From an uncultured Elusimicrobia bacterium (lineage in GTDB: Bacteria; Elusimicrobiota; Elusimicrobia; 2-02-FULL-39-32), in contig CAZFYO010000002.1 in the NCBI GenBank assembly GCA_964523525.1, forward strand, positions 133,038 through 197,037: a stretch of DNA of 64,000 nt, in the 5' to 3' direction. The notes beneath the pieces are model-generated. The model was not told where the DNA came from, did not search any database, and was given only the letters and a program-made list of their open reading frames with translations. Below are positions 2,626 through 64,000 of the stretch, one piece after another (positions within the stretch are counted from its first letter, which is position 1; every line of letters begins with the position of its first letter). The position numbers and the translations under genes were made by a program.

Positions 2626-2643
2626 TTAGGGACAGACACTATT

Positions 2644-3228: not shown

Positions 3229-3240
3229 TAAGGAATCACG

Positions 3241-19073: not shown

Positions 19074-19095
19074 TCGGGAGAGCCCGGGGACGGCG

Positions 19096-20163: not shown

Positions 20164-20176
20164 AAAATCCTCATGT

Positions 20177-20836: not shown

Positions 20837-20848
20837 GGGCGGCTGAAC

Positions 20849-22033: not shown

Positions 22034-22058
22034 GCGGGTCTCCTCGCCTGGTTGTGAT

Positions 22059-23291: not shown

Positions 23292-23297
23292 GCTTTC

Positions 23298-24206: not shown

Positions 24207-24225
24207 TGAAGATCCCCCGGCAAAC

Positions 24226-25134: not shown

Positions 25135-25150
25135 TAAATTGCTTCCTTGA

Positions 25151-26032
25151 CTAGCGTCCGACCATTTTGATTTCGGGCTCAAGGTCCACGCCGCATTTCT
25201 CTTTGACGGTCTTTTGCGCGTGCGCCACCAGGGCCTGAAAATCCTTCGCGGTGGCGCCGCCCGTGTTGACGAAAAAATTGGCGTGCTTGGGCGAAACCTG
25301 CGCCGCGCCGATTTTGAACCCTTTGAGCCCCGCCTGCTCGATCAGCTTCGCGGAAAAATTTCCCTCGGGATTTTTGAAAATGGAGCCGACGTTTTGCGTG
25401 CCGATGGGCTGGGTCTCGAGCCGTCTCGACAAAAATTCCTGGATGATTTTGAGCGTGGATTCTTTTTTGGCGGGAACAAGCTTCAGCGTGGCGAAGCACA
25501 GGATTTTTCCGCCCAGAGACGACCATCGGTACTTAAAATCAATCGCGTTGGCCGGTATGATTTTCATATTTTCCTGCTCATCCAGCACTTCGACGGATTG
25601 CGTGATGGTCCCCAGCCACAATTCGCGCGTGCCGCAGTTCATGATGAGCCCGCCGCCGACGGTTCCCGGGACGCCCACCAGAGGCTCCGCTCCTCCCAAC
25701 CCTTTTTCGGCGCAGGCTTTCACCAAAGTCGGCAAAAATACTCCCGCGCCGGCGCGCACCGTGTCTCCAGAAAACGTGAAGGTTTCGAATTCCCCCCGCA
25801 AGCGGATGACCAGCCCAGCGATGCCGGCATCGCTCACCAAAAGGTTCGAGCCGGCCCCCAGGATGAAAACAGGAATCTGTTTGGATTTTGAGAACGAAAT
25901 GAGGGATTTTAGATGGGAAACGGAGGCCGCTTCGGCGTACCACTCGGCGGGACCGCCGATGCCGAGCGTGGTGTGTTTGGACATTGGCTCGTTCGTCGAG
26001 ATCCGAGCACCTGATTCAAGCAACTGCTCCAT
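25151..26032 (-). CDS. murB: UDP-N-acetylenolpyruvoylglucosamine reductase
   Basis: 293 aa with an FAD-binding N-terminus (…HTTLGIGGPAEWY…FILGAGSNLLVSD) and a MurB C-terminal domain (…KNPEGNFSAKLIEQAGLKGFKIGAAQVS…). Confidence 0.85.
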   Translation of the reverse strand: MEQLLESGARISTNEPMSKHTTLGIGGPAEWYAEAASVSHLKSLISFSKSKQIPVFILGAGSNLLVSDAGIAGLVIRLRGEFETFTFSGDTVRAGAGVFLPTLVKACAEKGLGGAEPLVGVPGTVGGGLIMNCGTRELWLGTITQSVEVLDEQENMKIIPANAIDFKYRWSSLGGKILCFATLKLVPAKKESTLKIIQEFLSRRLETQPIGTQNVGSIFKNPEGNFSAKLIEQAGLKGFKIGAAQVSPKHANFFVNTGGATAKDFQALVAHAQKTVKEKCGVDLEPEIKMVGR

Positions 26033-26080
26033 GGAATGAAAGGGTACAAAATCGTTCCGGTCATGTCAAAAAAGCGTGGA

Positions 26081-29000
26081 TCAAGCTTGTTTCGCAATCA
26101 ATTCAGCGTCGCGCCAGATATTATCGATGTCGTTGCCATCGATCAGAGGCATGGCCTGAAAAAGGTCATTGATCACAAGTATCATTCCCTGCTTCAGCAG
26201 AGAAATCTGGGGCAGCACGGAGTATCCGGATAAATTCCCCATGAGGCCGCGATGAACGATGAAGACGTGCGTGCCGAAACCTTCCCGGCGGACACCTTCC
26301 GTCAAAGCATCCAATGCATTCCAGTTGACGTTCCAACCAGAAACCTCGTGCAGCGGATCAAACAAATTCTCGCTGCCCATAAAGAGCACTCGGACGATAC
26401 CTAACTCTCTTGCATATTGGGCGATGCGGTCCTTTTGATCCTGCGATAGGCCCGGCGCAAAAAAGCCAACTGCCGGCGCGTCGCGGCTGAGCTCTTCCGG
26501 ACGCTCTAACCTAGATAAAACGTTCATTGCAAACTCCTCGGCATCGGCACTCGGCGGAATTACGACGCCGATAAAGGGACGCTTGCTTTCCGAAAGAACG
26601 GTCGACAAGCGGCCGCCGATATCGGAGAATTCAACACCATTTAGAATCGCATCCACCGCATCGCGCAGAACCTGATCTATCGCGGGCGTTTTCGCAGAAT
26701 ATTTTGATTGACCCATCCCGCGTTTGATCCGAATCTGCTTTGCGATTTCGCGGACGAGAACATCCTGATCCAAGACCTTGGAAACGCCAGGCAGGGCTGC
26801 GTGATGCAAGACGCCACCCAAATCTTCCACACCGGATTTCTCAACCGGGCCAAGGATGGCGCCGATATGCGGCTCATCGCCGCTAACCAACAGACGCGCG
26901 ACGATTTCTTCCGGGGATGCGCTCCACCTCTCAGGAATGACACTTATCAAAGAACGGACCCAGCGAATCAAATTCGTTACAGGCCGATGAATCGCGTATA
27001 TATAAAGCGTTTGAAATCCTCTGTCCGTAAGAAATTGAGCAAATGAAAGAGACCGGTTCATCTTCAGGCGTATGAACTCGTGCCGATCAAAAATTGTTTC
27101 CAGCACCTGCGTACGAAGCGAAGCCAAGTCGGGCGACTCAGGATCAGATGAAATAAGACGCACGAGCCATTCCGAAATTTCCAACGTTTGGCGGCCATTT
27201 TCATTGATCACGCGAGCCTCTGCCTTGCCGCGATGTCCAAGATATGAATTAACGCGCACCTCAACGCTGTCCCACAGGCCACCTTCAAGAAGATGATATC
27301 CCGCTAATATATGCCTCAAGCGCTCAATGGCAAATAATTTTTCTGCGGAAGTTACAGGTTCGGACGAAACACTAAATGAAATTTTGGCCTTTTCAACCCA
27401 TCTGCGCTCTCTGCCGAAAGCTATACTTTGCAAGGCGAACAAGGACGCCGTGGTGAAGGAGAAAATCACAAACGACGGGCGCAGAAAATCCGGCACCGAT
27501 AAGCCCGATACCTGCCCCGCGAGAAGAAGAGCGGACTCCAGGGTAAACAGCAGGCCAGCAGAACCCGCGACAAAGCCGAAAGCGCGGCCCGCCCTCCGGA
27601 CATGGACCAGATCGTATGGCGAACCTGATTCCGCCGCGCGCTCCATCAGCCGATCAGAGCGGTTGCGGAGCCTGTCTGCCTCGGAAAGATATGCATCGCG
27701 AACCCGGTCGATGGAGGTTTGTGACGCCTGTCGACGCAATACGCTGATCGCAGCGCGAACAGCCGCATCAAATTCTCCTGCAGCGGCGCGGGGATCGCTG
27801 GACCAGCGCTCTTGCATTCTGATATCCGCCGCCGCTAAATTCTCCCAGCGCGCCAGGGTGTCCCGGATATACAACGGCCGATCCTCCCGGACGACAGCAA
27901 TGAGCTCGTCAGTACCGATCTTGAAAATATCTTCCGGTTTTTCCAAAATCCCCTTCGCAACTGCGAGTCGGCCCTGATTCAGCATCATTCGAGCGATTTT
28001 CCTCTGAAACGGAACGATCAGGTGGTGTCCGTCTTCGCGCAGGACGATCTCCATCCGCGACAAGGCGAGGATCACTTTTAGTTCAGGAAGCTTTTCAAAT
28101 ATATGCCTCGCATTTTGCTCATATCGGCCCGTTTCTTCCGATTGAGCCAAGAGCTGTTCGAGGACATCCGGAATTCTCGCTTCGATCTCTGCCGGGGAAA
28201 TGGAATTCATAGCAAGGACTTTGATATTCCCCATGGCTTCAGTGTTCCCGGTTTCAAAATCAGGATATTTGGACTCGAAGGCCAGTAGGCGTGCCCGGCT
28301 GGCGATCAGATCATAGAGAACCGGATCCTGGCCGCGAATTTTCTCGGCATCGTAGTCCTCCCAGCCGGAAAAAAGCCGGGCCAGCAACGGTATGCCGATG
28401 GTCGCGCCGCTTTTCAACCGGCCGTGCAGGTCCATGAGATACCGCGGCGTATCATCCAAAAGCTCGATATGCTCGCGCGTTTCCTTGTATTTGTCGGACC
28501 ATCCCCGAACCGCGTTCAGGATTTCAGGCGCGCCCATCTCCAACCTTTGTGCAATAGCAGCTGCCGCATCAACCCGGTTATCATTATTCAATTCAAACGC
28601 CGCCACAGCTGAAGGCGTCCGGCGGATTCGTTCCAGCAAGGCATAAATTTCCTTATCCTTGGCCCGAGACAACTCCAGCACCCAGCCTGGCTTGATGTCG
28701 CTTCGGAATGGATTAATGCTGCCGGATGGCAAGATGTCCGACACCGCAACGTCCCTTAAGTACGGATGCAGCTCCTTATGCAGATAAACGAGCCGGGGAC
28801 GGACGAGGTTTTCATCAACGATGACATCCAGCCAGAAACCGATGTGCATCCACACAAACGCATCAATCAACGCGTCTACCATCGCATCGACGTTTGAAGA
28901 ATCTAGGGTCTCGATGGATTCCGTGAACATCGCGAACTGCTGAAATCCCCTCCACCGGGCTTCATAGAGGTCTAAATAATCCTCCAGCGACAGGCCTTCG

Positions 29001-32000
29001 AGCCCGGAGAAAAAATGATAGATGTCTGCCGGATCGTTAGGAACCACCTGATGAAATAATGAAAGGCCCTTGGGCTCTGCTTTGATTTCGCGGCGCTGCG
29101 AGACCAGACGGAACGGGCTCCGCTCACCGTACGTCCCATTGAAAAAATCCGTCAGTTTATCCCAGGCCTTGTAATAGTAATCGAGCTGGAACCAGCCAAA
29201 CCCATCTGACCGGCGGCGCCACTCCCCTTCAAAATCATCTCCAAAAACCTCGGGCCGCTTGAGCTTGCTATCGGCCCAAGACCGAAATATTTCGTGAATT
29301 TCCTGACGCCCTTTAATCACGCTAAAAATGTCGGGATCTACGTTCCATATATTCAAATCCCGCTCTTCAATCAGGATGGGCATTTCGCCGAGGTATATCC
29401 TGCGGTGGTCCGCATCCAACGTGACGACCTGTCCGTTCCATTTTTTCAGGACATCAATGGCTTCGGCAGCGCCCACGATGCAGGGGATTCCTATGGCCTG
29501 GGCATTTTGCGCTGCGTGGGACGTAACCCCGCCATCCGTGGTCACCACCGCGGCCAGTTTTGCAAACACGGCATTCCACTCGTTGTTGGTATGGTGCGTC
29601 ACAAGAATCGCCCCCGGCGTTGCATCGCGATGCTGGTCCGTTGACTCTATGATTTGCAAGCGGCCGACCACTGCCCCCGTGTTTGCGATTCGGGATGACG
29701 CTCCCAATGTAACCTGGGGAGCCGACCGGGCGGTTTCCGATTTATCATCTACAACCGATACGGAAATCGTAAACTGGCCGCCGCTTTTATTTGCAGCTTT
29801 CACTGCCTTAGGTCGGGCCTGAAGGATATAAAGTTCACCATTCTCGCCAAAACAAAATTCGATATCGAGTTGCTCCGCCCAGTCCTTGTTCAGATAGTGT
29901 CTTTGAAGGTTCCCCGATAGGAGGCTCAACCTCAAAACCTCCACGTCACTCAAACTGGGGTCATCTCCAATTATGGACTCTTCGCGAACCCCGCCGCCCC
30001 TGCCCGCCGCAATGCGCGCCCGCTTAGGCACGATCGACTTGTCGAAAATAACGTCGCCCATATATCCCGTTATCCACCGATCACTGCCATAGCTGTTCTG
30101 CTGAACGACGCCTTCCCCAAGGCCGGGCTGGGCTTCAATGACGTGGAGAGGCCACTGCGTTTCATCATGCACCGTGAATAGCACTCCTGCGGCCTTGGGA
30201 TCCACGAATTGCTGGAGAACGACCGCCATTCGCGCCTCTTTTTCCGAAAAGCCGAGTGTTTTGCGGTGAGTGACGAACTCCTTCGAATAAAGACTGGCCC
30301 AGACTTTCTTGATATCGGAAAACAGTTCTTCTTCTGTGATGATGTGCAGGAAGGATTGCGCGAGCCCCGCGGCGGAGGAGCCCTCGATATCTTCAACGTT
30401 GGCGGAACTACGCGCCGCGACATCGCGGCCCAGTTTTCGAAAAACGTCGCTCAGCCCCTTTCGGAGCCCGACAGGCATTTCCATACGGGTGATACGTGTC
30501 CTGAGTGCCGAGGCCGTTTCCTCAATGCCGTTCTCGGACGATTCGGATTCCAGTTTTTCCACCAACCTTGAGACTTCCGGATCCGCGAGAACATAGCGTT
30601 CAAACGCGGCAGTGGTCAGCACTTCGGTCTCCGGAACCTTGAAATGAAGCCCATCTCGATTCCTGTAAACTTTGGAGATATCCCGGAGACGGTGCAGATT
30701 TAACCCCTTGCCCCCCACGAGGTGCAATCTGCCGGACATGGGATGCGCGGCCGGCAAAATGTCTGTGACCTGTGACCATATATCATCGTTTCCAAAATAG
30801 GGAGCAACCAGGTCCTGGGCGAAGTCCCGGGGCCCACGCAGGAAGCGGGCGCGGACCTTGTCCCAGTTTTCGAAGCGCATCAAATCGGAATCTGCGCCGT
30901 CATAATCCGGAGCCTGGCCCGAGACACCCAGGTTATCAATCGCGCGTTTCCGGGCTCCTTGCTTGCGGGTAATGATGCGGGATATTTCATTTTCTTCCGC
31001 AGCATTCAAGACATACACCATGAGCGTGGACTCGTCGTTCGAATCCATTGGAAATACGTAAGGAATTCCCGTCCGAGCCCGAACCTCCTCAGCTGCCGAC
31101 TGAACCGGGGACCGGGTGCGTTGAGGATTGACCGAATAGAGGCTCAGGCACCGCGTAAAAGAATTGTAGTCAGCGAAGATTTTTTCGCCGCGGAATCGGG
31201 AGGAGAAATCTCTCAAAATTTCGCGAAGCATTTCTTCTTCCAATTCACTGAAGGCAAAGAAATCATAGCTGATCATCCCGGTCCGAAAAGAACCGGCGCT
31301 ACCCACCGTTTCCAGCCTGCGGAGATCAGGCGTAATGCCCACTTCTTCCTGAACCGCGCGAGCAGCGGCGGCTTCCAGGGTCTCGCCATCTTTCGGTTTT
31401 CCATTGGCGGACACTGTCCACTTGTAGGGAAACGACCGCTTGAAGGCGCCGCGTTGCTGCAAAAGCACTTTACGACGGCTGGAATCCATGACCAGAATCT
31501 GGACCGAACGGCCACTGGTGCCTTGAGTCCAGCTTCCGCCACTCAGCGCTTTGGCGAAGAGCCGGGAAACGTAGCGCAGAGATAAGAGCTTATCCCGCAT
31601 ATCCAGCGCCGAACCAAACGCCAGGTTTCTCTCCATCTGGCTCTGAATTTCCTGGCCGGCTGTTCTGGATCCGGCGAAGTCCCCTTCGCCAAAACGTTCT
31701 CGCATTTTCTTCGCGCGCTCTACCTGCCCTTCCTGCACCGCACGGCGAACATCATCCCTGAGTTTATTTTCGGGCACGGAATACAGGAACTCCGCTGCAG
31801 TGCGATCAACTACCGGAAAGGATCCTCCAGCGGAGCGCATGATTCGCCTGTCCTGCCAACTTGCGGTAAAATAATCCGAACCCTGCGGCACATAGGCAAA
31901 GACGACTCCTCCTTTAGGCACACCGCTGACCGCCATAGAAAAATTTCCATAGGCTTCAAACAGATGAAATGCGGGCTTCTGGACATTGCGCAGCATTTCA

Positions 32001-35000
32001 AACTGAAGCGCTCCCACCGAAAACAGGTAATCCGCACCATTCACTGCAGCAAAAGCTTCTCCGGAAAGGCGGCTCATGTCGGTACCCTCATGCGGCGGAC
32101 CGTTCCCAATTAGATTAAAGCGCCCCTTCTCCTGCAGTCCCCTCAGCGGCTCAAAAATCGGGTCTTCCAGTATTTCAAGGGTACTCAAATAACTGAGATC
32201 AGTCCGGTAATTCGCCCTTTTGGGAATGAAGTTGATGCTCAAATTGGGACTCTCCAGCAGCATCTCCATCGCAAGTTTTAGAACGAGGACCGATTCGCCG
32301 TTGTCATCCGGCAGCCAGGCAACCGTAACGGGGGTTTTTGCATTCAGGACGGAGTTTTCGAAATGCGAATATGCGTCAATTGCGGGGACAGTGCTATCGA
32401 AGGACGCGAGCTTTTCCATGTTTGCCACGGCGATGGCATCCGCGGTACCAGACTCGCGCCCGTCATACATTTCGTATTTTAGGATTTCAAAAACACGCGC
32501 TGAACGCAGGAGGAGTTGGCGGACGGATAATCCCGGCTCGAATCGACGCAGCATAGCCAATGCGGTCGCATTGGAAAGATCGTTGCGCTCGCGGTAGGGA
32601 TCGAAATCGGGGTCCTGGATTTTTCCAGTCGCAATGATCTCTATGATTTGCATCGTGAGCAGGCCTCGTTGCCAAGTCGTAAGGCCGGACTCCAGGGAGG
32701 AACCGTCATCCATGGGAATTTTCCAGGCCAGTTCCAGGAGTTCCAGCCCGCGGGCCGTTAAGGTTGAAAGCGCTCGATCCTTGTCCTTCCGGCGCATCAG
32801 ACCGTTGGAAATTTTCTGATCCAGCCAAAGCGAAAGATCCCTTTCGATGAGCTTGCGTCCGACGATCCTATCTTCGCTCTCTTTTTCCATCCCGGCAACG
32901 TCGCCGGCAAGGTATGCGCTTGAAACATAACCACGGCCTACAATTTGCTCGAGGTCATGATTAGCCGCGGAAGGTGGTGACCGCGGCAGAAGGGTTTCCA
33001 GAATACGCCGGCGCTTGGCGGAGATGTCACGATATTGAATGGATTCTTTCCAGCCGAGATCTTTTTTAAGGATGTCATAAAGTTCGTGAATGGCGCTTTC
33101 AGATGACTGAAACTCGTTTACCGACGGTCTCACCTGATCCGAGATTGTGCCAGAGGATCTGAACTGACTGACAAAAACAAACGCATCAAATGCAATGTGG
33201 GCTGCGATTGCGGGCAGGGGATGAACGGCATACATCAGAAAAAGTGCGGACGAGCCCCATTGCAGGCGGCTCCAGGGAGAACCGCGCACCCGTCGCGGCG
33301 CGAGCGCGATAAAATATGGAACGTGCATGGCAGCGTACAGAGAGATCACGGCGAGGAATACCGGAGGCTCCAGCCAGCCCGGAAGGAGCCAGGCGCCCAA
33401 TATGATTTCTGCAAACGTTCCCGCCGCCCCTATCGCGGCAAGATGCGCGCGATTTCTCACTCCTGCCACTTGAGCAGCCAAATACGCCATTGAATTCGCG
33501 GCCGCGACTCTCGAACTGAAAATGGCCATCCGGGCGTCGACAAAAAGTGACAGAATTCGGCTGACCCCGGTAAATCCGGCACCTGCCTCATCCACGTTCA
33601 TTTGGCCCGTATCGGGGTCCTTTGAAACTGAATACTTCATGGATCCGTTGGGGCCCGAGACGGAAACCCGGACCCGTCCGGGCCCGGCATCTTGCAGCCG
33701 GGCCGTGAAGCCATTGGCCGCTTCGCCCAGCGCCATGGACATACCGGCATCCACCTCCCGGGCGTCGAGATGAGTATCTGCCCCGTTCGCGATTTCTTCA
33801 AGGGCGAGCCGATCAATCGCAGCGGATCGTTGCGCTTCTAAAGTCCATGGCTCGATTGAGACGAAAAGTTTTTCACCGCTAAAAAGCTTTTCGATGGGGG
33901 TTTTCTCCCGGGCGAAAATGGAAAGATATTGCGCGCCGCCGAAGGTTTCAATCTTTTCGACTTTCGGTGAAAGCGTCAGCACCGCTACGCCGGATGCAGA
34001 GATATCTTTTTCGATAGCGGACGAATGAAAGCCTCCCGCGACCAGCACCGCAACGTTGCTCCCGCGCTCCTTCATCTCCCGCAGGAGCTTGAAAGACATG
34101 GCGCGATCGCGAAGAGTCGCCTCTCTGAAAAACTCCTCAAACATCGCGAGCTCCGGATCTTTGCCTGCCAGAGATTGATACGCTCTCCACTCCCCGGGTG
34201 AGAGGGAATAGTCCAGAAGCCGGCCAGTTAGTCCCGCTGCGCGGGACTGCTCCAGTAGCCTTTTCTCATCCTCGGACCGGACCAGAACCCTGTATGCGGA
34301 GGCCTCCAACGCCCCCAGTTGATCAAAAAATTTATCTGAGCGGATCCCGTCCGACAGTGCGGCGTATCGGACGTACCGGACCAACTCCGGAAATTCAGAA
34401 AACCGGACGCCGTGCTTTTTCCCTATGCTCTCCAGCCGGCCGTAAAATTCCGAATGGTCAAGCTTGCCACATCGGTAAGCAATCGCAGCGTTTGCAAGAT
34501 TCTCGGATTCCCTCCGACCGATCGAGCGCGCCAGCTGCCCAAGAAAATCGCCGCGCTGTTTTTCCACCGCTCTGAAATCTATAGAAGATTCCATGTTCAG
34601 GACAACCAAAAATTTCCGCACTTCGTCGGAGTCCTCCGCCAGAGGTGTGACTGCAGCCAGGGCCCGGACGTACTGGCCCAGCGGGATCTTTTCGCCGCGA
34701 TGAGACTGCACCACCCTGTCGAACGCGAGGAGCCGGGGATTGAACGTCTCGAGTTTCCGGCGCTCCAGTTGCAGCTGAACTCGCTTCAGCTGCCGAAGTC
34801 GCGCGGGCGCGGCCGCGAAAGAACCGAGATAGGCGCTCACGTTCGCCGCGTAGCGCTGGCGGTCGTCCACGCCGGTAAAAATAGGAGCCCTGCGCGCGGT
34901 CAGGCCGGCATGCACGGGGCCGGTAATTTTATTTTTCTTCAGAAGGAAATCAGCGACTGTAACTGTCGATTCCAGCTTACCGGATGATCTGAATTTTTCC

Positions 35001-42882: not shown

Positions 42883-42911
42883 GCGCCCTTAGGCCCCCAA
42901 ACTCTCAATAT

Positions 42912-51203: not shown

Positions 51204-51216
51204 GGTATTCTCCCTC
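51204..51216 (-). promoter_or_regulatory. Shine-Dalgarno sequence (GAGGGAG) for giant gene 3, in the 17-nt spacer after the gene 4 stop
   Basis: The minus-strand sequence is GAGGGAGAATACC followed by the ATG at 51203, which implies translational coupling. Confidence 0.6.
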
Positions 51217-51220
51217 GATA

Positions 51221-57200: not shown

Positions 57201-60200
57201 TCCGCCTGCCAGACTTCAAGCGAGTCGTAGGGCGAGGTCCTCAGTCTCTGCACGAAATCGCTGCGGCTCCGCGCGGCGCTGGCCTTGGCGCCGGAAAACT
57301 GCTCATAAAGCACCGGATTAATAATTGGCGTCACCATTGAGGCCGCAAATAGAGCCAGCAAGACGCTCCCGGCCAGCAAAATGGCTGGCGGAAAAAATGC
57401 GGAAAGGTAGCCGTTCAACACGATGATGAGCAGCGCCATACCGAACGTAAAAGTTTTCGGCGACGTGGCAAACGGCTCGTAAGCCGGTTTCGAGCCGCTC
57501 TGGCTCGGGTTGATGCCGATAGGCGGACCCTCGCCGCGCTCGATCACCTGATTGTGCGCCCGTATGCCATCACTTGTGGATTTCGTGTGGATGCCCAGGT
57601 TCGGCATATATATCGCGTTGGACATGGCCGTCTCCGCGATGCCCCAAATGAAATACAGGGGACCCATGATGAGAACGTTGGGGAGAAACATTACAAACTG
57701 GGCGAAAAGCTTCTCGAATGGATTAACGATCGTTCGACCGAACCACCAGGGGTTTAGAACGCTGTTGAACGTGGGACCCAGCGGCTTCGATAGCCACAGC
57801 AGGCCAAACAGGATGAATGAGAGCGTCCAAGCAGCGTCCGGGAGACGGTATTCGATCATTCCGGGAAGATAATTCATGTAGAAATAGCCGAGAATTAAAG
57901 TGAAGGCCCAGACCGGCGTTACAATGATCCCGAGTATCCCGAACCCGTGAAGAAATTTGCTCTGAATGCTGAGGGCCAGTGTTTTCCCCTTGGTTTTAAA
58001 ACTTTCCTGCGGCACCTCATTCTGAATATTCCACTTTTTGGCCAGAAAGAACAGGAAACTTCCCACGATGGGGCGGTCATCGATGATGGCGGCGATCAAT
58101 CTGGGCACCGACAGCAGAGCGACGCCGACGTTTCTCAGAATCGGCCGGGGGTGTTTGGCAATCTGATCATAGTTCTGTTCATAAATCTGGGCTGAGTTCC
58201 GGTGCCCGAACCGCGATTTGGAGAAAAAGACCATCCAGTCGATCTCCATTATGAATTGAAAAAGAAAGCTGCCGGCGACGCGATCTTTTTTCTTTTCGAG
58301 CGCGGTGACGGGACGCTTAACCTTATATTTTCCGTCCTTGGCCATTCTCCATATCGCGACGGAGTCCATCGCGCTTGCGCTCATGATCTCGTCTTCGCTG
58401 TTGATCCGGTTATAGATCAGGTTCCAGAACCTCTGGAAAACGGCTGGCGAATGCACGACCCGCAGCCCAAAATTCGTCAGCCAATGGTGTTCATAGCCCG
58501 AGGCGTAATACCCGCGCGTGAAATAAAAACCTGCGGGGTACCCCGGCATGGATTTAAATGCCATAGCGATGGATTCGTGTATACCGCAATACTTCCCGAA
58601 TGCTCGGATGACGCCCAAAAGCAGCGCGTTGAACTGTTGGGTAAACCACAGCCCCCTGTGGGCAAACACGCCCATGAACTGCAGCATAGAGTTCTTGGAT
58701 TCATAGCCGGTCATGGCCTGCATCATAAAATACTGGGCACTCTCAAGCGTTTCCATGAGCTTGGTAACGACCAGGGCCATGTACATGCCGGCCGCAGCCC
58801 AAAGCCAGTTGCCGTTATCCACCACCACGAAGAACCGCTCCCGCGCCTTGCCCGGCGTCTCGGGGAGCATGGACTCCATATAATCGGTTTCCCGCAGTTC
58901 CTCCCAGGGGATGAACGTACGCTCATCGCGCGAGGTGATGACGCCGTAGAAAAACGGTTTGCGCATAAACTCAAGCCCGTTGTCGAAAAACTTTTCGGTG
59001 CTCAGGATCAGGTCGCGCGTCACCGCGTCAACTCCAAGCTGCTGCAAACGCTGCATCGCGCTCTGAGGATCCATATCCAACAGGGATCTTGCCAGCGCAG
59101 CGCGCTGCGCCGCGTTGCCTTCGAAAGGTTCCAGGTGCTCATCAATTTCAGAAATCGAGGTGTTATAGTTCATCTCCCACATCGGTGTGCCGTACATCGG
59201 CATTCCCCAGATATACGTCTTGACCTCCTCAAGATTGATAATTTCCCGTTTCACCCGGTCTACGCGCGCGACGATACTCTCAACTTCGCTGCCGCTGAGC
59301 CTTTTGCCGCCTGCCAGTTCTAATCTGATCAGATATTGCCGGCCGCCGATCCCAGTCAAACGCAGAAGGGTCTCCGCGGTTTCGTTCCCGGATATTACTC
59401 CTGCCGGAAGTTCTTCGGCAATAGCGAGTACAGCTGCGGACTTGGCCTCATTGAACTCCCTGTCGTTGATCAGCTCCCACGGTCCCTGTTTCCGGATGGA
59501 GGCAATCTCTCTGAGTATTTTCTCGAACGCCTTGTCGTTATGATCGACGCTCTGCTCGATCAGCATCTGACGCGCAACCGGCTCAAGAGACGTCGCGAGC
59601 TTTCTGGCGAACAGAGGGATTTGCTCCGCCGGCATTACTTCGAGGTAATTATTGGAACTTTTGCCTTTAGCTTGCTCCTTTACGCGGTCCGCCATGACCC
59701 TCGTAAGAATATCGATGATGACTTTTTCGCCATTTTCCATCGCCTTGCGATATGCATCGGTTTCTGCCCCCATTCGTACGCCGTGGAACCTCACAGGCAT
59801 GGGAGAAGGGATTTTGGGATCGTCCAAAGCCGGCAGATACGACATGGTCTTGGTTTCAATAACAAGCGCCTCAATCGCCGACCTCTGGTCAGCGCCAAGA
59901 TCTGCAAGACCATTTAGCAGCATCGCGCGCTGGTTCGGAGTCGACCAGAGCAACCGCTTCGCGAAAGCAGTACGATCGCTCCAGACAGGAATCATTCCAA
60001 GAGCGCGGGCTACGCGCTCTTCCGGACGGCTCATGTCTCGGACTTCTTCCATGATGTCCAGCACGTCATTGATTTGCTGCGCATTTAAATCGAGTTGCGC
60101 ATTCAGTTCCTGAACCATCAGCAGCCGCGCGGTCATACCCGGGACCTGCCTGAGCGCTGCGTTCAACAGGTCATAAGCCAGCTTTTTGCGAGCGTCCTTA

Positions 60201-63200
60201 TTGATATCACCGTCAAAGATTCCCATGGCGGCAAGTCTCGGCTCTATTAAATCGATTTCGGTATCCAGCTGAGACCAAAATCGACCGGGCGTGCCATCAT
60301 TTCCGTTCACCGCGGTTTCAGCATGCATGGCGGTGGGCAACGGCTTTTTACCCGCCGAAGAACGCGCTAATACGATGAACCGCTCGTCGCCGTAGTGGAT
60401 GGTCCTGGACAAATCCGCGTTGGATACACTTCTTAGATCAACTCCTATCCTTGCCTCAAGGGTCGCGCGAAGCACAGCAGGATCTTTTCCGTTCCAACCG
60501 TAGAACTCATCGCCAATAGCGTCAATGTTCGCATGATTTTCGCCGGGCAAGAGGGCCGCAAGAGCGTCTTTAAAATCGGAACGAAGCATACCGTCCTGAT
60601 AATCTTCCTGGATTTTTCCGATCGTTCGCAGCTGCGCTTCGGTTAGAACCACACCATGGCGCGCCGCCACTTCCATCAATCGCGCCGAGAACCGAGCGGA
60701 GTCAAGACTATCGATATAGCCGTCCAGCATGATGTAAAGCTCGTCAACAGACTCCTTGACGAGAGCCTTCATCTGTTCATCAGTACGCCCACCCTGTATC
60801 TTGTGAAGAGCCAAGGCAAGAGCCGGTTCATCGACATATGTAAATTCCGCATGGTAAGGCCGCGCCATACGGGAGATGATTTTCTGGAAATCGCGATGGT
60901 TGGAATTTACGCTGCCGTAGCCCACGTTGATGGTGTTCCCAAGATCTCCCCTCCGCCTTCCCATAAAATCATTGACGTTGTTCCGGACATCAGCAGGTAA
61001 GCTGTGTTTATCCATCACCTCCGCAAGAGCATTAGGCTTTCCCGACTGCACGGCCAGGATCATCTCATACGCTAGGCCTTCCTGTTTGCCGGCGGCGACA
61101 GAACCCGCAACGATCCTCGCCAGCTCGGCCATCGCCGGATAAAAGGAGAACGCGTTATAAGACAGATCAAGATAGTGGCGGAAACGCTTGTCATTGTTGC
61201 CGCGGATTGATCGGGCCATTTTGTCGAAGAGTTCTATCGAAAAATATTTATCCAGCTGGTCGCCTGCAGGAATAGACGGGAAGAAGGGCATCTGCGCCTG
61301 AAAGTACTGGTGTTCCTTAAGACGATGGACCAGCTCGTATGCGCGGTGCTGCGGTCCCCGCAGAAGCTTGGTTTGTTCTACTTTTTGCGGGCTCACGAAT
61401 TTTCCGGTTCCCCGGCCCTGACCGTCAACTTCTTCCACGACCTTGCTGTCATCCAGATATTTCCAGTCGCGCACTTCCTCCACCATACCTGGAGGCGTTC
61501 CCATCCATTTTCCGAACCACTTCGTTGTCATCATGATCAGGAGACCGTGCGCGGCAAGAATGAACATCAGGACACCGGCAAGGATCGGGGAGGTAGAGAA
61601 GAGGCCAATATAGCCTGAGAAAATTGTCCAGATGCTGTCTGTATCGTAAAACACTGATGTCAGCGTGGACCCAATCATGAAATATACAAAGGTGATGGCA
61701 AATGCCCGAAACTGAGCGACGGTCTGTGCCATAATCAGGAACGGAATATTCCGAAGCAGCAGGACGGTGGGCAATATAAACAATACCAGAGGGATGACAT
61801 GAATTGCGCCTTCAAACGGATTAAGCACCGCGAGATTCCAATAAAGAAAGAAGACGGTCCAGAACGTCGTAACCATGCTGTTGATCATGATACGGATCCA
61901 GGCATGGCGGTGCGGGTGCCAGTCGTTGACATCTTCCTTATCAATGAGATATTCCCGATGGAACGTCGGGAAGAAGAAATTTCGGCGCGAGAAGCTGATC
62001 TTGTAGTGGACGAAAGGGTTGATCATATGGTGTCGGAGCCATCCGAGCACGGTCAGGCTGGTGAAGAAAAGTGATGTTATCAGGCTGGCAAAAGCGATAT
62101 TGGTGAGAGCGCCCGTTGTCTGATTTCCCTTATTAAGGCCGAAAAGATTATATTCGCCCAAGAAGAGCTTGGACCAGGGACGAGTCCACCATGGCCTCCC
62201 GTCAGGAATATCAGCGTAACTTTCCAGCTCCCTGTTTTCGACTTGGCGCAGAGGTTCGTTGATCGCCTTGTCGACTTTATAGATCAGGCGGTTCTTATCA
62301 TCCCGGGACATCGTGGGGAAGAAAATTTCCAACAACCCGATCCTGCGGTCGGGATTCTGATGGGAGTCCAGGGTTAGCAGAATTTCCAGATCGGTGATCT
62401 TGGATGTAATGCCGCTGGACCCTTCCACAGGTTCCGGCTTGAGTTTTTCCTGTTCAACGATAAACTCCCGGATTCTCCGGACTTCAGCCATCAGAACGTT
62501 GATTTGATAAGGCGGGATCTTTCTGGCGATCATCTCCGCGACAATTGCACCCTCGATTCTCTCGGCGCTGTTCTTCCCTTGGATAAAATGGGTCTGCAGG
62601 GTGAGGTCCAGGTCGGATCGATAATAAAGCTCGTTCACCAAGTCGCCCACACGGCCAAAGTTCTTCACCTTCTCCGGCTTTTCTGCGGCGAGAATACGGT
62701 CAAATAGACCCTTGAACTCCAGGTTGACAGCATCCCGGACAATCTGTGGAGAAGTTTTTTCGGGAACATAGAGTTTGGTCATTCCAAGTTCCAGAATCAT
62801 GTCAGCCGAAAACCGGATCTGCTCGTCCGGAATGTTGACTCCGGATGCGCGCTCAAACTCCGCCATACTTTCGACGGTCAGGAAAAGCTGCTCAAAAGTC
62901 TTCAGAATCTCCGGGCTTCGGGTCACGAACTCATTGCGAATCTGATCCACGCTGGCCGCGCGCTCGGTTTTCAGCAATTCTGGGCTGTCCGCTATATTGG
63001 TAGGTTTGTAAAGGATCCGATGGCCATCGCTGAAATCAGGCAGGGGAACGAGTCCGGACTGGATGGAGTTCACCGCCATCAGGCTGATTTCCTGGTCCCT
63101 GTACCCGTTCAGCCCGATTTCCGCCAGATATTCCTTGAGAGCGGCCTCGAGCATCACCTGCCAGGCAAAAAGGGTGAGAGCGCGCTCGATTCCCAGGTTG

Positions 63201-64000
63201 TACTCCTCCGAAAGCCCCGCCTTGACCACATCGGTGTCCAAGGGATCCTGGAAACCCTGCGCGTATATGGAACCCGTAATGCCGTTGACCTGGCCCTTTT
63301 GAACGGAAGTCAGTCCCAGATCCTCGGAAATCCCGTTGAGGATTCTGAAGATCTCCTGCGAATAGAGAGGAATGGTCGTGTCCCGGAAGAAGGCGTCTTC
63401 AGCGGAGATCTGAGACTGCAGCATGTCGTTGATAATATAATCAATGTCGCCGCGCTCCAGCCGCTGAATGCCATTGTCAGCGGAGAGCCGGCGCAACTGG
63501 GTCTCAAGGATCAGGGCGCTCTTATCGCTTTTTAACGCCTCGAAAGCCTGATTTTTGTAGCTGGCGGCCAGACTTTTTGAATAGGACGCGTAGGAGTCGA
63601 GCCGTTTTGTGTTCCTGTTGGCGATGTCATCCTTGATCGCGAGAATAAGCGCGGGATCGGCCTGCACCGTGATTCCCCTGAATATCGCATCTTCCGGCCT
63701 CTCGGAGCTTTCCAGACGGCCGTTCACCGGGACGCCGATACCGTTACCTTCAAACAAGAATTCGATGCCGCCGTCCACGACAAGGCTGATCGGCAATTTC
63801 GCAAGAGCCTCCGCAAGCAGCTGCTTATCGGATAGAGGGATATCTGGCAGCCGATAGTCCAGGATCTGGAAGTTTCTGTATTGCACGAAATTTCGGTTCT
63901 GCTCGGAGTTGTCGAACGCAAAATCTTCCCGGAGGCGCTCCTTAAGAGGATCGCCCGTGACGATCTTGTAGCGGACCGCGTCGGCATTGTCGCGGATCAG
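51221..64000 (-). CDS. giant polytopic membrane protein 4 (more than 4259 aa; N-terminus beyond the window edge). It has three large TM domains, four novel ~100-aa repeats, an acidic DSDSD linker and a conserved C-terminal tail
   Basis: The reading frame stays open from 51221 to position 64000 with no stop. Translating 63887-64000 by hand gives …LIRDNADAVRYKIVTGDPLKERLREDFAFDNSEQNRNFV before the GTG that the track reports as M. The true start therefore lies upstream of the window. Confidence 0.85.
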   Translation of the reverse strand: MIRDNADAVRYKIVTGDPLKERLREDFAFDNSEQNRNFVQYRNFQILDYRLPDIPLSDKQLLAEALAKLPISLVVDGGIEFLFEGNGIGVPVNGRLESSERPEDAIFRGITVQADPALILAIKDDIANRNTKRLDSYASYSKSLAASYKNQAFEALKSDKSALILETQLRRLSADNGIQRLERGDIDYIINDMLQSQISAEDAFFRDTTIPLYSQEIFRILNGISEDLGLTSVQKGQVNGITGSIYAQGFQDPLDTDVVKAGLSEEYNLGIERALTLFAWQVMLEAALKEYLAEIGLNGYRDQEISLMAVNSIQSGLVPLPDFSDGHRILYKPTNIADSPELLKTERAASVDQIRNEFVTRSPEILKTFEQLFLTVESMAEFERASGVNIPDEQIRFSADMILELGMTKLYVPEKTSPQIVRDAVNLEFKGLFDRILAAEKPEKVKNFGRVGDLVNELYYRSDLDLTLQTHFIQGKNSAERIEGAIVAEMIARKIPPYQINVLMAEVRRIREFIVEQEKLKPEPVEGSSGITSKITDLEILLTLDSHQNPDRRIGLLEIFFPTMSRDDKNRLIYKVDKAINEPLRQVENRELESYADIPDGRPWWTRPWSKLFLGEYNLFGLNKGNQTTGALTNIAFASLITSLFFTSLTVLGWLRHHMINPFVHYKISFSRRNFFFPTFHREYLIDKEDVNDWHPHRHAWIRIMINSMVTTFWTVFFLYWNLAVLNPFEGAIHVIPLVLFILPTVLLLRNIPFLIMAQTVAQFRAFAITFVYFMIGSTLTSVFYDTDSIWTIFSGYIGLFSTSPILAGVLMFILAAHGLLIMMTTKWFGKWMGTPPGMVEEVRDWKYLDDSKVVEEVDGQGRGTGKFVSPQKVEQTKLLRGPQHRAYELVHRLKEHQYFQAQMPFFPSIPAGDQLDKYFSIELFDKMARSIRGNNDKRFRHYLDLSYNAFSFYPAMAELARIVAGSVAAGKQEGLAYEMILAVQSGKPNALAEVMDKHSLPADVRNNVNDFMGRRRGDLGNTINVGYGSVNSNHRDFQKIISRMARPYHAEFTYVDEPALALALHKIQGGRTDEQMKALVKESVDELYIMLDGYIDSLDSARFSARLMEVAARHGVVLTEAQLRTIGKIQEDYQDGMLRSDFKDALAALLPGENHANIDAIGDEFYGWNGKDPAVLRATLEARIGVDLRSVSNADLSRTIHYGDERFIVLARSSAGKKPLPTAMHAETAVNGNDGTPGRFWSQLDTEIDLIEPRLAAMGIFDGDINKDARKKLAYDLLNAALRQVPGMTARLLMVQELNAQLDLNAQQINDVLDIMEEVRDMSRPEERVARALGMIPVWSDRTAFAKRLLWSTPNQRAMLLNGLADLGADQRSAIEALVIETKTMSYLPALDDPKIPSPMPVRFHGVRMGAETDAYRKAMENGEKVIIDILTRVMADRVKEQAKGKSSNNYLEVMPAEQIPLFARKLATSLEPVARQMLIEQSVDHNDKAFEKILREIASIRKQGPWELINDREFNEAKSAAVLAIAEELPAGVISGNETAETLLRLTGIGGRQYLIRLELAGGKRLSGSEVESIVARVDRVKREIINLEEVKTYIWGMPMYGTPMWEMNYNTSISEIDEHLEPFEGNAAQRAALARSLLDMDPQSAMQRLQQLGVDAVTRDLILSTEKFFDNGLEFMRKPFFYGVITSRDERTFIPWEELRETDYMESMLPETPGKARERFFVVVDNGNWLWAAAGMYMALVVTKLMETLESAQYFMMQAMTGYESKNSMLQFMGVFAHRGLWFTQQFNALLLGVIRAFGKYCGIHESIAMAFKSMPGYPAGFYFTRGYYASGYEHHWLTNFGLRVVHSPAVFQRFWNLIYNRINSEDEIMSASAMDSVAIWRMAKDGKYKVKRPVTALEKKKDRVAGSFLFQFIMEIDWMVFFSKSRFGHRNSAQIYEQNYDQIAKHPRPILRNVGVALLSVPRLIAAIIDDRPIVGSFLFFLAKKWNIQNEVPQESFKTKGKTLALSIQSKFLHGFGILGIIVTPVWAFTLILGYFYMNYLPGMIEYRLPDAAWTLSFILFGLLWLSKPLGPTFNSVLNPWWFGRTIVNPFEKLFAQFVMFLPNVLIMGPLYFIWGIAETAMSNAIYMPNLGIHTKSTSDGIRAHNQVIERGEGPPIGINPSQSGSKPAYEPFATSPKTFTFGMALLIIVLNGYLSAFFPPAILLAGSVLLALFAASMVTPIINPVLYEQFSGAKASAARSRSDFVQRLRTSPYDSLEVWQAETKDMSDSRQYKYSKRNAWFPMIFLTAVALLMNVLSLPEQISQSWLFLFMAIGIPFVIFQFINVYVGFFRYGGERDIRRSTILGPGDSTRRFWNIYVSGRMFNLLDAVDKFQSGLIGRIVWLARLAVYYAWPGMKFGLLGLALGFILPTIDNPLIPALVLGGIGLLLPLARILIRAPARSGLRGIQWMGDRISFVAIESTLIGILISAAVIFVSVPATQPIFGGFIEFLTHTPLASVSHVMTGDGSVGVMPNVLLARSPHVLFLTTIIVGELIFFALSLFYIAIDVLFMNRGNYSWKHIPVYAMFDRKFGITERLSLDPTMLAAKTEGGEGVRDMNQPSADSLARLEVIRGSSDSAELRSRIDNLIELANMHHFAPDPQMLWYESGALNRWVETLANINEQSAYTVKINAASVSQNGIASVTRSARLNGLRIRGGHSLEHKIIAKDGVPNANRAGMLNVKDWSMDNLLLPAPVDGIGRQLSLVRSALDPEVADPAALEKIAAIGAEAQTDSLRDRVENLIELSRAHTFTPLRELLPYDSTALNRWVDAIVRINGELERSDSGVRIALNGKTLSPQGVEAVLELAKASGIDVSKHSLPLARLEFSTLRPSRIARLWLASVRAYYWSRDNRMIPSRSEAADPLIVSVEEAHAHAAARPAVIATPPLLAAIRDKARTNDLKNRIDSLVRISAAHDFEPRPEYLIYSPFDLERWVEQITAVNDGFENAGAQIRIPFNTSTLSQNGIIAVTKIAEANAVPINGLFNLPNHPIRRNVARVEPDDMTSPDSPDLRTGPERGADRDFDFDSDSDSDQTEGEAPESAGVSEASLPTMAGPRLGAVSAGNALNKKSFDIAMERAVARLTELRHNASPQMQNKIDALSALVERYKDRYPFVPSASFLRYSVGTLEQRIGQIAAMNDALAEAQSGYRIPINTRSVSARGIKEAEERVKEIISEVAAPSGEEDRGVESGVSNKLGILPLGLPFGLPLLNIYNSITGFFTDHPVLGAALVIPALIAAIGGIKIARSRIPDSDINELQNKSPQYLKDIEFARASADAGHVEAIPKLELLLNKYQSELARIGDGSSEPLYSGQLHYDYMKAEQYAHVVRQIDNEYYEVWEAPNPFYNPNIERYTIAIDALTKSLDTLRALSRISSGQQQLSLTGDLIRASWSIKMGELSRITAPSAPTTQRYLDGPNRRVAGRAYEIAPRHGEGAVAPDVAQAIDPNPPADDNIFSLEAGWVDQHALGVDPPVAINGRSYRLVADGRPSMPYDTLLFPENDVNLVLSSRDTDKAQDVRDAVFDLISFHRASGIKGYINSLGIGALHRLHDHLYWGQFPMERGMKVKQLGEVSGVTVGEIENVEGLPGVSTVLESNDDAALADMTFRLAGLLMDSRIPYHAYFSAGRVIFIWRNPSALETWNAEDLYLDGNYFSPHSFFGLLLYPKTVLRNMTMERYRQLVRQVSYTTQDADGNEIGDRTQVKNTVLAGLGVASVQLDENMEMTVVGKNAWRSVTGRVGGVIEAQRARMAGIPNAVQAGLNRANISRERFGAIPSGLSAGFRGIGTRISNSLGRIREESRTFLSDNLAERTAMLVARNSGPIADLSDAMQSPVTRDMAADQKGQVYKQLLSESAAYIRERAGNVKVRVTASSRSGRVIAALPIAGAFIGTAGLAAWKFGGSVVISVPEKIVGGLIAPAGSIAHVAAMGAYTSQLDRIRSMPWDSIGLLAGVAHWQSVVLVVSAVILTAAAANANRLVRAAPFISNRFDLSALGGLLGKTTFVESNLPSSHEIGTMLLGDRTTTDSRKGTILVITSPLADKNSPDRLIVEGVLTQIRANPENAANFRVVYNSDDPALQISDKDATRKQLAAALKLQALGSEILQDLALTSADEIISGMKTSDIQVIGTPEDIQSLNLNIEGTNITLTSFKYQQLVNVGVEFRAYGREAEQIRALIIDAGGVEVEPGASRGNDGALVLPARQVKPKDFDRLWTEVQMILKQA
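54346..56191 (-). repeat. four divergent ~100-aa protein repeats in giant protein 4, a domain family I do not recognise
   Basis: Each repeat carries R[IV][DE]NLIEL…H.F.P…L.Y…L.RWV..I..[IV]N… and then a RI..N…[LV]S.NGI..V pattern. The copies begin RIDNLIELANMHHFAPDP, RVENLIELSRAHTFTPLR, RIDSLVRISAAHDFEPRP and KIDALSALVERYKDRYPF, with about 30-40% pairwise identity. Confidence 0.6.
54779..54815. repeat. hexanucleotide microsatellite (TCGGAA)3(TCGAAA)2 encoding the acidic linker DFDFDSDSDSD in giant protein 4
   Basis: The sequence reads tcggaatcggaatcggaatcgaaatcgaaatcg directly. The minus-strand translation is …DRDFDFDSDSDSDQ…. Confidence 0.8.

Follow-up and report, generated by a model that had tools for sequence, protein, structure and literature searches.

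Four giant genes occupy the minus strand of a 64,000-nucleotide stretch of contig CAZFYO010000002.1 from an uncultured Elusimicrobia bacterium, and this whole stretch is called the window here. The genes, which we name G1 to G4, extend over positions 26081 to 64000 and make up about 60% of the 64-kb window, with G1 being the 5′-most gene and G4 the one nearest to murB. Between them, the encoded proteins present a shared N-terminal domain with a predicted TIKI-like fold, a short C-terminal tail that ends in alanine, and ordinary metabolic enzymes embedded deep within very long polypeptides. From these features, we infer a topology and a function in which G1 to G4 would be membrane-tethered enzyme carriers for alpha-glucan metabolism, a proposal whose chances we consider to be evenly poised.

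The gene models, together with that of the murB gene that serves as the conserved anchor of the locus, are as follows (window coordinates).

26081..35461, minus strand: G4, 3126 amino acids (aa), ATG start
35446..42882, minus strand: G3, 2478 aa as read from a GTG; the likely start lies slightly downstream of that GTG
42912..51257 from a TTG (2781 aa), or 42912..51203 from an ATG at 51203 (2763 aa), minus strand: G2
51221..63886+, minus strand: G1, 3′ part only, at least 4259 codons visible
25151..26032, minus strand: murB, 48 nucleotides (nt) 3′ of G4

Open reading frames (ORFs) of this length do not arise by chance. Under a random-codon model with about 3.9% stop codons at the window composition, the probability of each stop-free frame ranges from 1e-43 to 1e-74, and the coding periodicity GC1 > GC2 < GC3 (GC content at the first, second, and third codon positions) is present in every 500-codon block. 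The G1 frame continues without a stop from 63886 to base 64000, and so the window edge truncates the gene. Its full length may well far exceed that of the visible part. The genes are tightly packed: G3 shares 16 nt with G4, 29 nt lie between G2 and the GTG of G3, and G1 and G2 either lie 17 nt apart if G2 begins at its ATG or overlap by 37 nt if the TTG is used. The ATG at 51203, which is preceded by the ribosome binding site GAGGGAG, is the likely start of G2. The 2763-aa product read from this codon is present in a library of representatives at 50% identity (P0085), and the product of G4 is identical to an entry of the protein collection (P0001).

The boundaries between the genes also appear to be genuine. 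Each stop codon is preceded by an Ala-ending tail, and G2, G3, and G4 each open with a signal peptide and the N-terminal domain of the family, which argues that the boundaries are not frameshifts or chimeric joins. Furthermore, a Logan contig from SRR16481186, which is an independent assembly, is 100% identical to window positions 23857–26854 and therefore confirms the junction that runs from the 3′ end of G4 through murB to ddl. The initial annotation of this region had described four real and co-oriented giant ORFs with the same junction lengths, the last of them still open at the window edge, and had argued that such frames are not accidental; all of this was reproduced here. It had also called for verification of the assembly, which the Logan contig provides for the G4-murB-ddl junction but for none of the three junctions between giant genes. 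Finally, its suggestion of an operon upstream of murB is plausible, given the short distances between the genes and the lack of any excess of terminator-like sites. Co-transcription of G1 to G4 might also run on into murB. Promoter-like and terminator-like sites occur only at chance-level frequency, an Rfam scan of the whole window returned no match, and the giant-gene region has no tandem DNA repeats.

The base composition of the giant genes differs from that of their neighbors. The GC content is 0.52–0.57 across the giant-gene region (26000–64000), except for the interval from 48 to 54 kb where it is 0.58–0.61, compared with 0.57–0.62 for the housekeeping flank (1–26000). Likewise, GC3 is 0.60–0.69 for the giant genes versus 0.71–0.84 for housekeeping genes. 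Low expression or a different history may account for these lower values.

We call the domain at the N-termini of the giants the head. G2, G3, and G4 share approximately 500–600 N-terminal residues at about 24% identity, and within these residues lies a conserved domain of about 460 aa, located as follows.

33818..35209, minus strand: TIKI/ChaN/EreA-like N-terminal domain of G4 (aa 85–548)
41104..42603, minus strand: TIKI/ChaN-like N-terminal domain of G3
49221..50861, minus strand: TIKI/ChaN-like N-terminal domain of G2

The invariant residues of the head, in G4 numbering, are D116, H118, Q124, E146, G197, R451, G476, G477, H479, and P499, and the motif D-x-H ... E ... R ... GGFH is present in G2, G3, and G4. 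Weak Pfam matches to ChaN, a member of the Tiki superfamily, were obtained for 9 of 18 head-domain members, along with single weak matches to TraB and Erythro_esteras, and NCBIfam models found nothing in this domain. An AlphaFold (AF2) model of the head made with an alignment (predicted local distance difference test score, 84; predicted template modeling score, 0.74) has a beta/alpha-type core whose beta-sheet is parallel and a helical insert of about 250 aa, with the conserved residues located at strand ends. Its best structural matches are ChaN, RRSP, TraB, EreC, and HopBA1. The TIKI 2His/2Glu motif of RRSP comprises E3900, H3902, E3930, and H4030 (PMC6254334), and the spacing from His to Glu is 28 residues both in RRSP and in the head domain (H118 to E146). 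Given the D-x-H sequence, a Glu 28 residues further on, and the His of GGFH, the catalytic constellation of these hydrolases appears to be conserved, except that Asp occupies the position of the first Glu. We therefore assign a TIKI/ChaN/EreA-like fold to the head with moderate confidence, and the domain is a candidate hydrolase.

Two short segments accompany the head and the far end of the chain. The N-termini of the family begin with a Sec-type signal peptide, which in most members is followed by the conserved motif [FL]W-x-[EQ]-R-[RK]. This motif takes the form NLWEQRK in G2 (aa 51–57 of the TTG frame) and SLWSERRK in G3 (aa 53–60), and has diverged to VNHWIEAA in G4. It does not resemble any sorting or processing signal known to us. 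At the other end, Ala is the final residue in 58 of 72 proteins, compared with an Ala content of 10% overall, and 40 of 59 proteins of at least 2000 aa in an independent set likewise end in Ala, as do all four proteins encoded here. The tail is an amphipathic helix in which hydrophobic and basic residues recur at constant positions counted back from the C-terminus. When a profile of the last 30 residues of the family was built without G1 to G4, the true C-terminus ranked first among all windows in G1 (of 4230), G2, and G4, and 38th of 2449 in G3. Conservation of the C-terminal region beyond the tail is scant, with only 11 similar pairs among the C-terminal 900 aa of these proteins.

Between the head and the tail, about 80% of each giant protein matches nothing known. 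Of 189 members, 135 have one or more transmembrane (TM)-like segments in the 400 aa that come after the head, and hydropathy finds such segments in all four of the proteins encoded in the window. The Cys content of the giants is only 0.0–0.2%. The recognizable enzyme domains and the one duplication found in the giants are located as follows.

47067..48704, minus strand: phosphoglucomutase (PGM)/phosphomannomutase domains I–IV of G2 (Pfam, aa 852–1397)
44451..46928, minus strand: two-copy tandem duplication in G2 of a module of about 400 aa (aa 1444–1847 and 1891–2269, 50% identical)
38443..39732, minus strand: starch/glycogen synthase (GT5 + GT1) of G3 (Pfam E 4.7e-57, aa 1051–1480)
31286..31513, minus strand: Nudix domain of G4 (Pfam, aa 1317–1392)
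29405..30721, minus strand: dikinase of G4, consisting of a PPDK_N ATP-grasp domain (aa 1581–1892) and a phosphoenolpyruvate (PEP)-utilizing mobile domain, the swivelling phosphohistidine domain (aa 1949–2019)

G3 consists of the signal peptide, SLWSERRK, the head, a GlgA-type synthase, a TM cluster, and a tail that ends ...IIWVSA. The synthase aligns with residues 2–416 of the 477-residue E. coli GlgA (E 1e-59) and retains both KVGGV, corresponding to K-x-GG-L/V, and FEPGG, which includes the catalytic Glu of the FEPxG motif. The cargo of G3 is accordingly annotated as a GT5 glycogen synthase domain with intact motifs that is predicted to depend on ADP-glucose.

In G2, the order is signal peptide, NLWEQRK, head, TM, PGM, the duplicated module, TM, and a tail that ends ...VILRQA. 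The PGM region retains TASHNP, GDGDFDR, EENGG, and RASGTEP, which represent the phosphoserine, metal, sugar, and phosphate loops, respectively. These motifs predict a four-domain alpha-D-phosphohexomutase. The two copies of the adjacent module share the invariant motifs PMKGDPWQxGH, DNSDPxRKPxLSSL, ADGE, and GxDH. An assignment of this module as a HIGH-type nucleotidyltransferase, which would provide an ADP-glucose step, was considered on the basis of motif resemblance, a beta-alpha-beta pattern, and one Pfam match at E 0.1, and is not counted as evidence. The AF2 model of the module is poor, and a fold search with it was uninformative.

The third enzyme-bearing protein, G4, is composed of a signal peptide, the head, three TM-like segments, a Nudix domain, a dikinase, a TM pair, a C-terminal domain of about 250 aa, and a tail that ends ...LIAKQA. 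Its Nudix box reads G-x5-E-x7-RAVQEEVGI, in which Ala takes the place of a single Glu in the REUXEE consensus. The dikinase retains GGVTSHA, and its best PDB matches are 5fbs and 5hv1 (E 3e-36), which were deposited as phosphoenolpyruvate synthase and which we take to be rifampicin phosphotransferase. As in those phosphotransferases, the PEP/pyruvate-binding TIM barrel (PF02896) is lacking in G4, where Pfam does not find it, and the enzyme is therefore classed as a dikinase other than pyruvate phosphate dikinase or PEP synthase. Plant glucan-water dikinase is a PEP-synthase-like dikinase that likewise lacks the PEP/pyruvate domain. Given the context, one might guess that glucan is also the substrate of the G4 enzyme. 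The C-terminal domain, of about 200–250 aa, is common to a subset consisting of G4, P0106, P0202, and L035.

Another array that includes an orthologue of G4 was observed in JGI Ga0558121_00357 (L001, positions 1–29318). There, a 2,391-aa protein with no Pfam match is followed by the G4 orthologue, which has both Nudix and dikinase domains and is 37% identical to G4. The third giant of this array exceeds 3,825 aa and carries PMI, PGM, and NTP_transferase domains.

G1 yields no Pfam match even at E ≤ 5 and no PDB relative, and aside from the tail, which ends ...MILKQA, it has no detectable similarity to G2, G3, or G4. G1 is thus tied to the family by its tail only. When the first 1200 visible residues (window 60401–64000) were searched against 5.8 billion proteins, nothing matched at E ≤ 1e-5, not even the protein itself; G4 and the RpsA protein of the same contig are present in this collection, from which the G1 product is seemingly missing. 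A hydropathy scan of G1 reveals one large polytopic block and two smaller clusters.

56366..58141, minus strand: polytopic block of G1, about 11 hydrophobic TM-like segments (aa 1954–2545 of the visible part)
61568–62110 and 51989–52255, minus strand: smaller TM-like clusters of G1

These results bear in different ways on what the initial annotation had concluded regarding the proteins. Its observations that all four have TM segments and that they are not classic giant adhesins both hold, since Pfam scans find no Ig/cadherin or other repeat domains. Its assertion that the proteins carry metabolic enzyme domains is borne out by Pfam for G2, G3, and G4, but not for G1, where none was found. Similarly, the terminal modules that it described as common to all four are present in part: the N-terminal domain is shared by G2, G3, and G4 and the C-tail motif by G1, G2, and G4, but the tail of G3 has in common only that it ends -SA. 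Paralogy of G1 with the other three is favored by the tail alone, as no other similarity is detectable and its N-terminus lies outside the window.

Proteins with the same architecture are extremely numerous. A search with G4 returned 69 relatives of 1,978–5,399 aa, including G4 itself. These match only 3–19% of the query, and the shared part is the N-terminal domain; the exception is the G4 orthologue P0002, which covers 42% of the query and has the same Nudix-dikinase cargo. When a profile of the head domain was searched against 1.84 billion representatives clustered at 50% identity, 10,271 clusters were recovered at E ≤ 1e-3 and 7,282 at E ≤ 1e-30. Among the matches listed, the head starts within the first approximately 140 residues in 149 of 150, and protein length reaches at least 6,013 aa. 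A scan of one genome per species with an alignment of seven head sequences confirmed 245 relatives. The best 80 of these 245, from 79 distinct loci, all reside in 26 Elusimicrobia/Elusimicrobiota metagenome-assembled genomes (MAGs), with up to at least seven per genome, and because the seven-sequence set is biased toward an Elusimicrobia subfamily, this uniformity says little about the full range of the family. More distant members are from Omnitrophota/Omnitrophica, with one additional entry named "bacterium F11." Thus, with regard to which lineages possess comparable giant ORFs, a matter that the initial annotation had raised, both Elusimicrobiota and Omnitrophota do, and the head-domain clusters exceed 10,000. 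Head-domain relatives often lead tandem arrays of long ORFs.

The cargo of these relatives is varied. By Pfam, and using the names given by the source, it includes GH77 4-alpha-glucanotransferase, glycogen phosphorylase, PGM together with NTP_transferase, hexokinase (PF03727), and adenylate kinase, as well as PPDK_N, HAD, GNAT, radical SAM, methyltransferases, SNF2/ResIII helicases, HATPase, AAA_5, and HEAT. Some other Pfam accessions among the relatives presumably represent GAPDH/TIM and FBP aldolase/phosphatase. Sugar-phosphate and glycogen enzymes are therefore a frequent but not the sole cargo of the family. The loci themselves lie in varied housekeeping neighborhoods. At one of them (L083, JGI Ga0558718_00377, positions 18137–27986), the genes that come after a PGM-carrying member (P0033) comprise a Glycoamylase/DUF3131 gene and those for a periplasmic binding protein, several CBM-containing proteins, and a sugar ABC transporter. 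That context is one of carbohydrate uptake, unlike that of the window.

In the window, the giant genes are followed in order by murB, ddl, an unrecognized ORF at the ftsQ position, ftsA, and ftsZ, which belong to the division and cell wall (dcw) genes. A syntenic relative of this arrangement is found on a 51-kb contig from Logan SRR29476933 (L087), in which FtsA, FtsZ, and MurB are 86%, 83%, and 76% identical to their counterparts in the window. There, the order is a 7,990-aa giant, a 226-aa ORF, a 2,599-aa orthologue of G2, and then murB-ddl-ftsQ-ftsA-ftsZ-pgeF-pheA-hisC-aroF-tyrA. The head of the G2 orthologue is 49.5% identical to that of G2; the protein has one copy of the module that is duplicated in G2, and it lacks PGM. 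A single copy of this module is also present in the orthologue P0207. The 7,990-aa giant (L087 1–9228 visible, with the 5′ two-thirds beyond this locus) ends ...IRIAA, has HHH_3 as its only Pfam match, and is weakly similar to G1, which occupies the same position, in two regions that include the C-terminus. Giants are located upstream of murB in both genomes and have different content; the site is thus conserved, and its content turns over. None of the 79 other Elusimicrobia loci has dcw genes beside the family member, and the linkage to murB is therefore lineage-specific and seen only in L087.

The remaining genes of the window provide some indication of the nature of the host. They include coxBAC, ctaB, an ABC transporter, a TolB-like protein, rpsA, aroA, tyrA, aroF, hisC, pheA, and pgeF. 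The closest named sequences to the encoded RpsA protein are from Elusimicrobia MAGs, at 54–55% identity. A cytochrome c oxidase operon at 152–4677 on the plus strand consists of coxB, coxA, coxC, an unassigned ORF, and the gene for heme o synthase, and therefore the organism appears able to respire oxygen. Together with the aromatic amino acid pathways, this oxidase suggests a free-living organism. The ORF at the ftsQ position (23298–24206, minus strand, 302 aa) has no NCBIfam match; its counterpart in L087 is 48% identical and has only a weak match to POTRA_1. A 940-aa ORF at 7755–10577 on the minus strand contains TolB-like beta-propeller repeats with Peptidase_MA_2 and Tricorn-like matches, and its sequence suggests that it may be a periplasmic protease.

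Considering these findings together, we propose that the array was inserted directly upstream of murB-ddl-ftsQAZ in an Elusimicrobiota chromosome and that each protein would be threaded through the cytoplasmic membrane. The signal peptide would place the head outside the cytoplasm, in the periplasm. ChaN, TraB/PrgY, GumN, and Tiki all act outside the cytoplasm. There, the head might act as a hydrolase or serve as a docking or processing module. The TM segments that follow the head, usually as a cluster about 100 aa further on, would return the chain to the cytoplasm and anchor it in the cytoplasmic membrane. The long and poorly conserved body would then carry a small number of ordinary enzymes, or just one, as exchangeable cargo, such that enzymes that need ATP, sugar phosphates, or ADP-glucose could function in a membrane-tethered state. 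Alpha-glucan metabolism includes, or could plausibly draw on, the reactions of PGM, the GlgA-type synthase, and the Nudix-dikinase, and it is on this ground that we suggest a glucan role. Acting jointly, they might accomplish the localized synthesis and turnover of a glycogen-like alpha-glucan, and the four proteins might perhaps associate physically.

Several observations weigh against this proposal. Some relate to the pathway. No ADP-glucose pyrophosphorylase or branching enzyme is recognizable in the visible part of the locus, G3 and G4 have no counterpart in L087, and G1 is without any domain that can be identified by Pfam or PDB searches. Moreover, the cargo of many family members has no connection with sugars (SNF2 helicases, methyltransferases, radical SAM, and sigma-70 region 4), and a pathway-specific interpretation may therefore be over-fitted. 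Others relate to topology. No hydrophobic segment lies between the signal peptide and the synthase of G3, which by the same logic would leave an ADP-glucose-dependent enzyme outside the cytoplasm. Crude hydropathy places the C-terminus of G2 on one side of the membrane and that of G4 on the other, which fits poorly with a shared function for the tail; positive-inside counts gave contradictory results and are not relied on. The remaining points relate to the head. Its Pfam matches fall below the gathering threshold (best ChaN match, E 2.9e-5; G4, 19 bits versus a cut-off of 27.7), a sequence-profile search of the PDB returns only noise (troponin C, mS26), Foldseek finds nothing in the PDB at E ≤ 0.001, and the first acidic residue of the motif is Asp rather than the Glu of TIKI.

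A more expansive form of the same proposal is that the TIKI-like head and the Ala tail define an unrecognized superfamily of enzyme carriers, comprising more than 10,000 clusters. Its basic unit would have been fused to create the "Archaeovorins," or "multi-enzyme metabolic" giants, of Omnitrophota, which are TM-rich proteins of 30–147 thousand residues; where these reside and what they do is under debate (West-Roberts et al. 2023, bioRxiv 10.1101/2023.11.21.568195; Nielsen & Lui 2026, bioRxiv 10.64898/2026.06.07.730766). Megadalton scaffolds of this kind would keep housekeeping enzymes permanently at the membrane and so amount to a separate mode of organizing central carbohydrate metabolism in bacteria, the heads may recognize or process tails and so link neighbors head to tail into a single assembly, and in the present genome the system would be wired into the cell-division operon. 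We offer this extension tentatively and doubt that it will hold as a whole.

Other explanations for the giants also merit consideration. It has been proposed for Archaeovorins that they are surface or secreted weapons for predation or episymbiosis, in which case most of the chain would be exported and would act on the envelope sugars of prey or host. Sec-type signal peptides, the very low Cys content, and the lack of a TM segment between the signal peptide and the synthase of G3 are all consistent with export, the enzyme repertoire overlaps that of Archaeovorins (GT5, GT1, PGM, PPDK_N, NUDIX, HEAT, HAD, radical SAM, and AAA_5), and the TIKI-fold effectors RRSP and HopBA1 act on other cells. 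However, PGM, an ADP-glucose-dependent synthase, and an ATP-dependent dikinase need cytoplasmic substrates, and TM clusters follow the head in most members. In addition, the visible flank contains dcw and amino acid biosynthesis genes rather than a secretion system, pilZ, or sugar-import genes, and the oxidase and aromatic pathways noted above suggest a free-living organism. We therefore regard this explanation as unlikely, although it deserves to be kept in view. A further possibility, for which the giant cyclic beta-1,2-glucan synthase Cgs/NdvB offers an analogy, is that the array forms a machine for glucan synthesis and export that is co-expressed with the division and cell wall genes, and that the TM block of G1 serves as a conduit to the periplasm or cell surface. 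The coherence of the enzyme set for glucan metabolism, the approximately 11 TM-like segments in G1, the tight junction of G4 with murB that shows no terminator enrichment, and the location of giants at the same dcw position in L087 would all fit. Yet the synthase and dikinase genes are missing from L087, where the G2 orthologue is also devoid of PGM, G1 does not resemble any known transporter or synthase, and no other family locus examined adjoins dcw genes, which together leave an export machine improbable.

The head could instead be viewed as a processing enzyme. In a scheme like that of MARTX toxins, this domain or another protease would cut the precursor to liberate enzymes or peptides, and the giant ORF would be a format for delivery or packaging and not the molecule that does the work. 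The head does appear to keep the catalytic constellation of a protease or esterase, the mature N-terminus and the C-tail are conserved and could be recognition sites, and cleavage into smaller products has also been suggested for Archaeovorins. Nevertheless, cleavage sites are not defined, and neither MARTX-type repeats, nor a CPD domain, nor genes for a type I secretion system were found, so we give autoprocessing only a slim chance. Least credible of all is that the genes are an artefact of assembly or annotation, decaying pseudogenes, or a misread giant adhesin or nonribosomal peptide synthetase/polyketide synthase. The contig is indeed metagenome-derived, GC3 is below that of housekeeping genes, and the protein collection has no entry for the G1 product. 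Against this stand the stop-free frames (P ≤ 1e-43), coding periodicity throughout, family head or tail modules at every ORF boundary, intact catalytic motifs, thousands of homologues with the same layout, and one junction confirmed by an independent assembly. Moreover, neither adhesin repeats nor the A, C, KS, and AT domains of the synthetases were found in G1 to G4 by Pfam. It is thus very hard to credit an artefactual origin.

The proposed membrane-tethered carriers can be compared with several known systems. MARTX toxins and giant RTX adhesins are likewise giant modular polypeptides with swappable enzyme modules and a functional C-terminal signal, and the TIKI-fold protein RRSP occurs in MARTX. 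In contrast, the giants of this locus start with a Sec signal and contain TM segments along the chain, and no RTX/Ig repeats, CPD domain, or nearby type I secretion genes were found. With the TIKI/TraB-PrgY/ChaN/EreA superfamily, the head shares a core whose beta-sheet is parallel, as well as a D/E-x-H, E, R, H motif, but here a helical insert of about 250 aa splits the core and the head is fused to the N-terminus of membrane proteins that are thousands of residues long. GlgA and phosphoglucomutase are normally free cytoplasmic enzymes, whereas in the window they are full-length domains embedded 850–1050 residues inside giant membrane proteins, and their partners in the bacterial glycogen pathway, GlgC and GlgB, are not seen at this locus. 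G4 has the same PPDK_N and TSH-motif phosphohistidine domains as do the PEP-synthase-like dikinases that lack the PEP/pyruvate domain, but differs in being fused to a Nudix domain within a 3126-aa protein.

The closest resemblance is to the Archaeovorins. Like G1 to G4, these have TM helices and/or a signal peptide, long unannotated stretches, and the same ordinary enzymes embedded within them; the domains reported are GT5, GT1, PGM/PMM, PPDK_N, NUDIX, TIM, FBPase, hexokinase, HAD, radical SAM, HEAT, and AAA_5. Omnitrophota proteins also occur among the head-domain relatives. However, Archaeovorins are single ORFs of 30–147 thousand residues from Omnitrophota, whereas the present locus is an array of separate genes from Elusimicrobiota that encode proteins of 2.5 to more than 4.3 thousand residues (7,990 aa in L087), roughly a tenth of the Archaeovorin size. 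Their flanks consist of an upstream locus resembling those for type II secretion or type IV pili and downstream pilZ and sugar ABC genes, whereas downstream of the array is murB-ddl-ftsQAZ (the upstream side is outside the window). Archaeovorins also have HEAT/TPR repeats and a C39 or S8 peptidase near the N-terminus, whereas G1 to G4 have no such Pfam match (E ≤ 5 for G1 to G3) and have the TIKI-like head instead (as observed in G2 to G4). The Archaeovorin papers make no mention of a TIKI-like head, the [FL]WxER[RK] motif, or an Ala-ending tail. Since the size, host, flanks, and N-terminal peptidases all depart from the Archaeovorin definition, we consider the locus to be a related variant rather than a member.

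Giant genes have been published as common in Elusimicrobia, and a published survey ranks Elusimicrobiota with the bacterial phyla in which huge proteins are most enriched, and notes that these proteins received no COG assignment and are essentially uncharacterized. Given these reports and the preprints on Omnitrophota, a sister phylum, proteins of this general kind are already known. What appears to be undescribed in the literature searched is the common plan (TIKI-like head, [FL]WxER[RK], and Ala tail), the size of the family, and an array of units of 2.5–8 thousand residues at a conserved dcw site. The locus reveals that a large share of these huge proteins are built to a single design of a hydrolase-like head, a tail, and interchangeable cargo, and the head-domain profile now gives a definition for a family of more than 10,000 clusters. 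One practical consequence is that, when a pathway annotation for these phyla reads "glycogen synthase present" or "PGM present," the underlying domain may be located inside a giant membrane protein. Should the enzymes indeed work while tethered to the membrane, this would represent an unusual metabolic organization in bacteria. The locus is not unique, as it represents one of a huge and almost unstudied family. However, compared with the 30–147 thousand residues of the Omnitrophota giants, its proteins are tractable, with 2.5–3 thousand residues and one enzyme each, and they offer the testable residues D116, H118, E146, R451, and H479. The value of this array is that of a compact and dissectable example of such giants.

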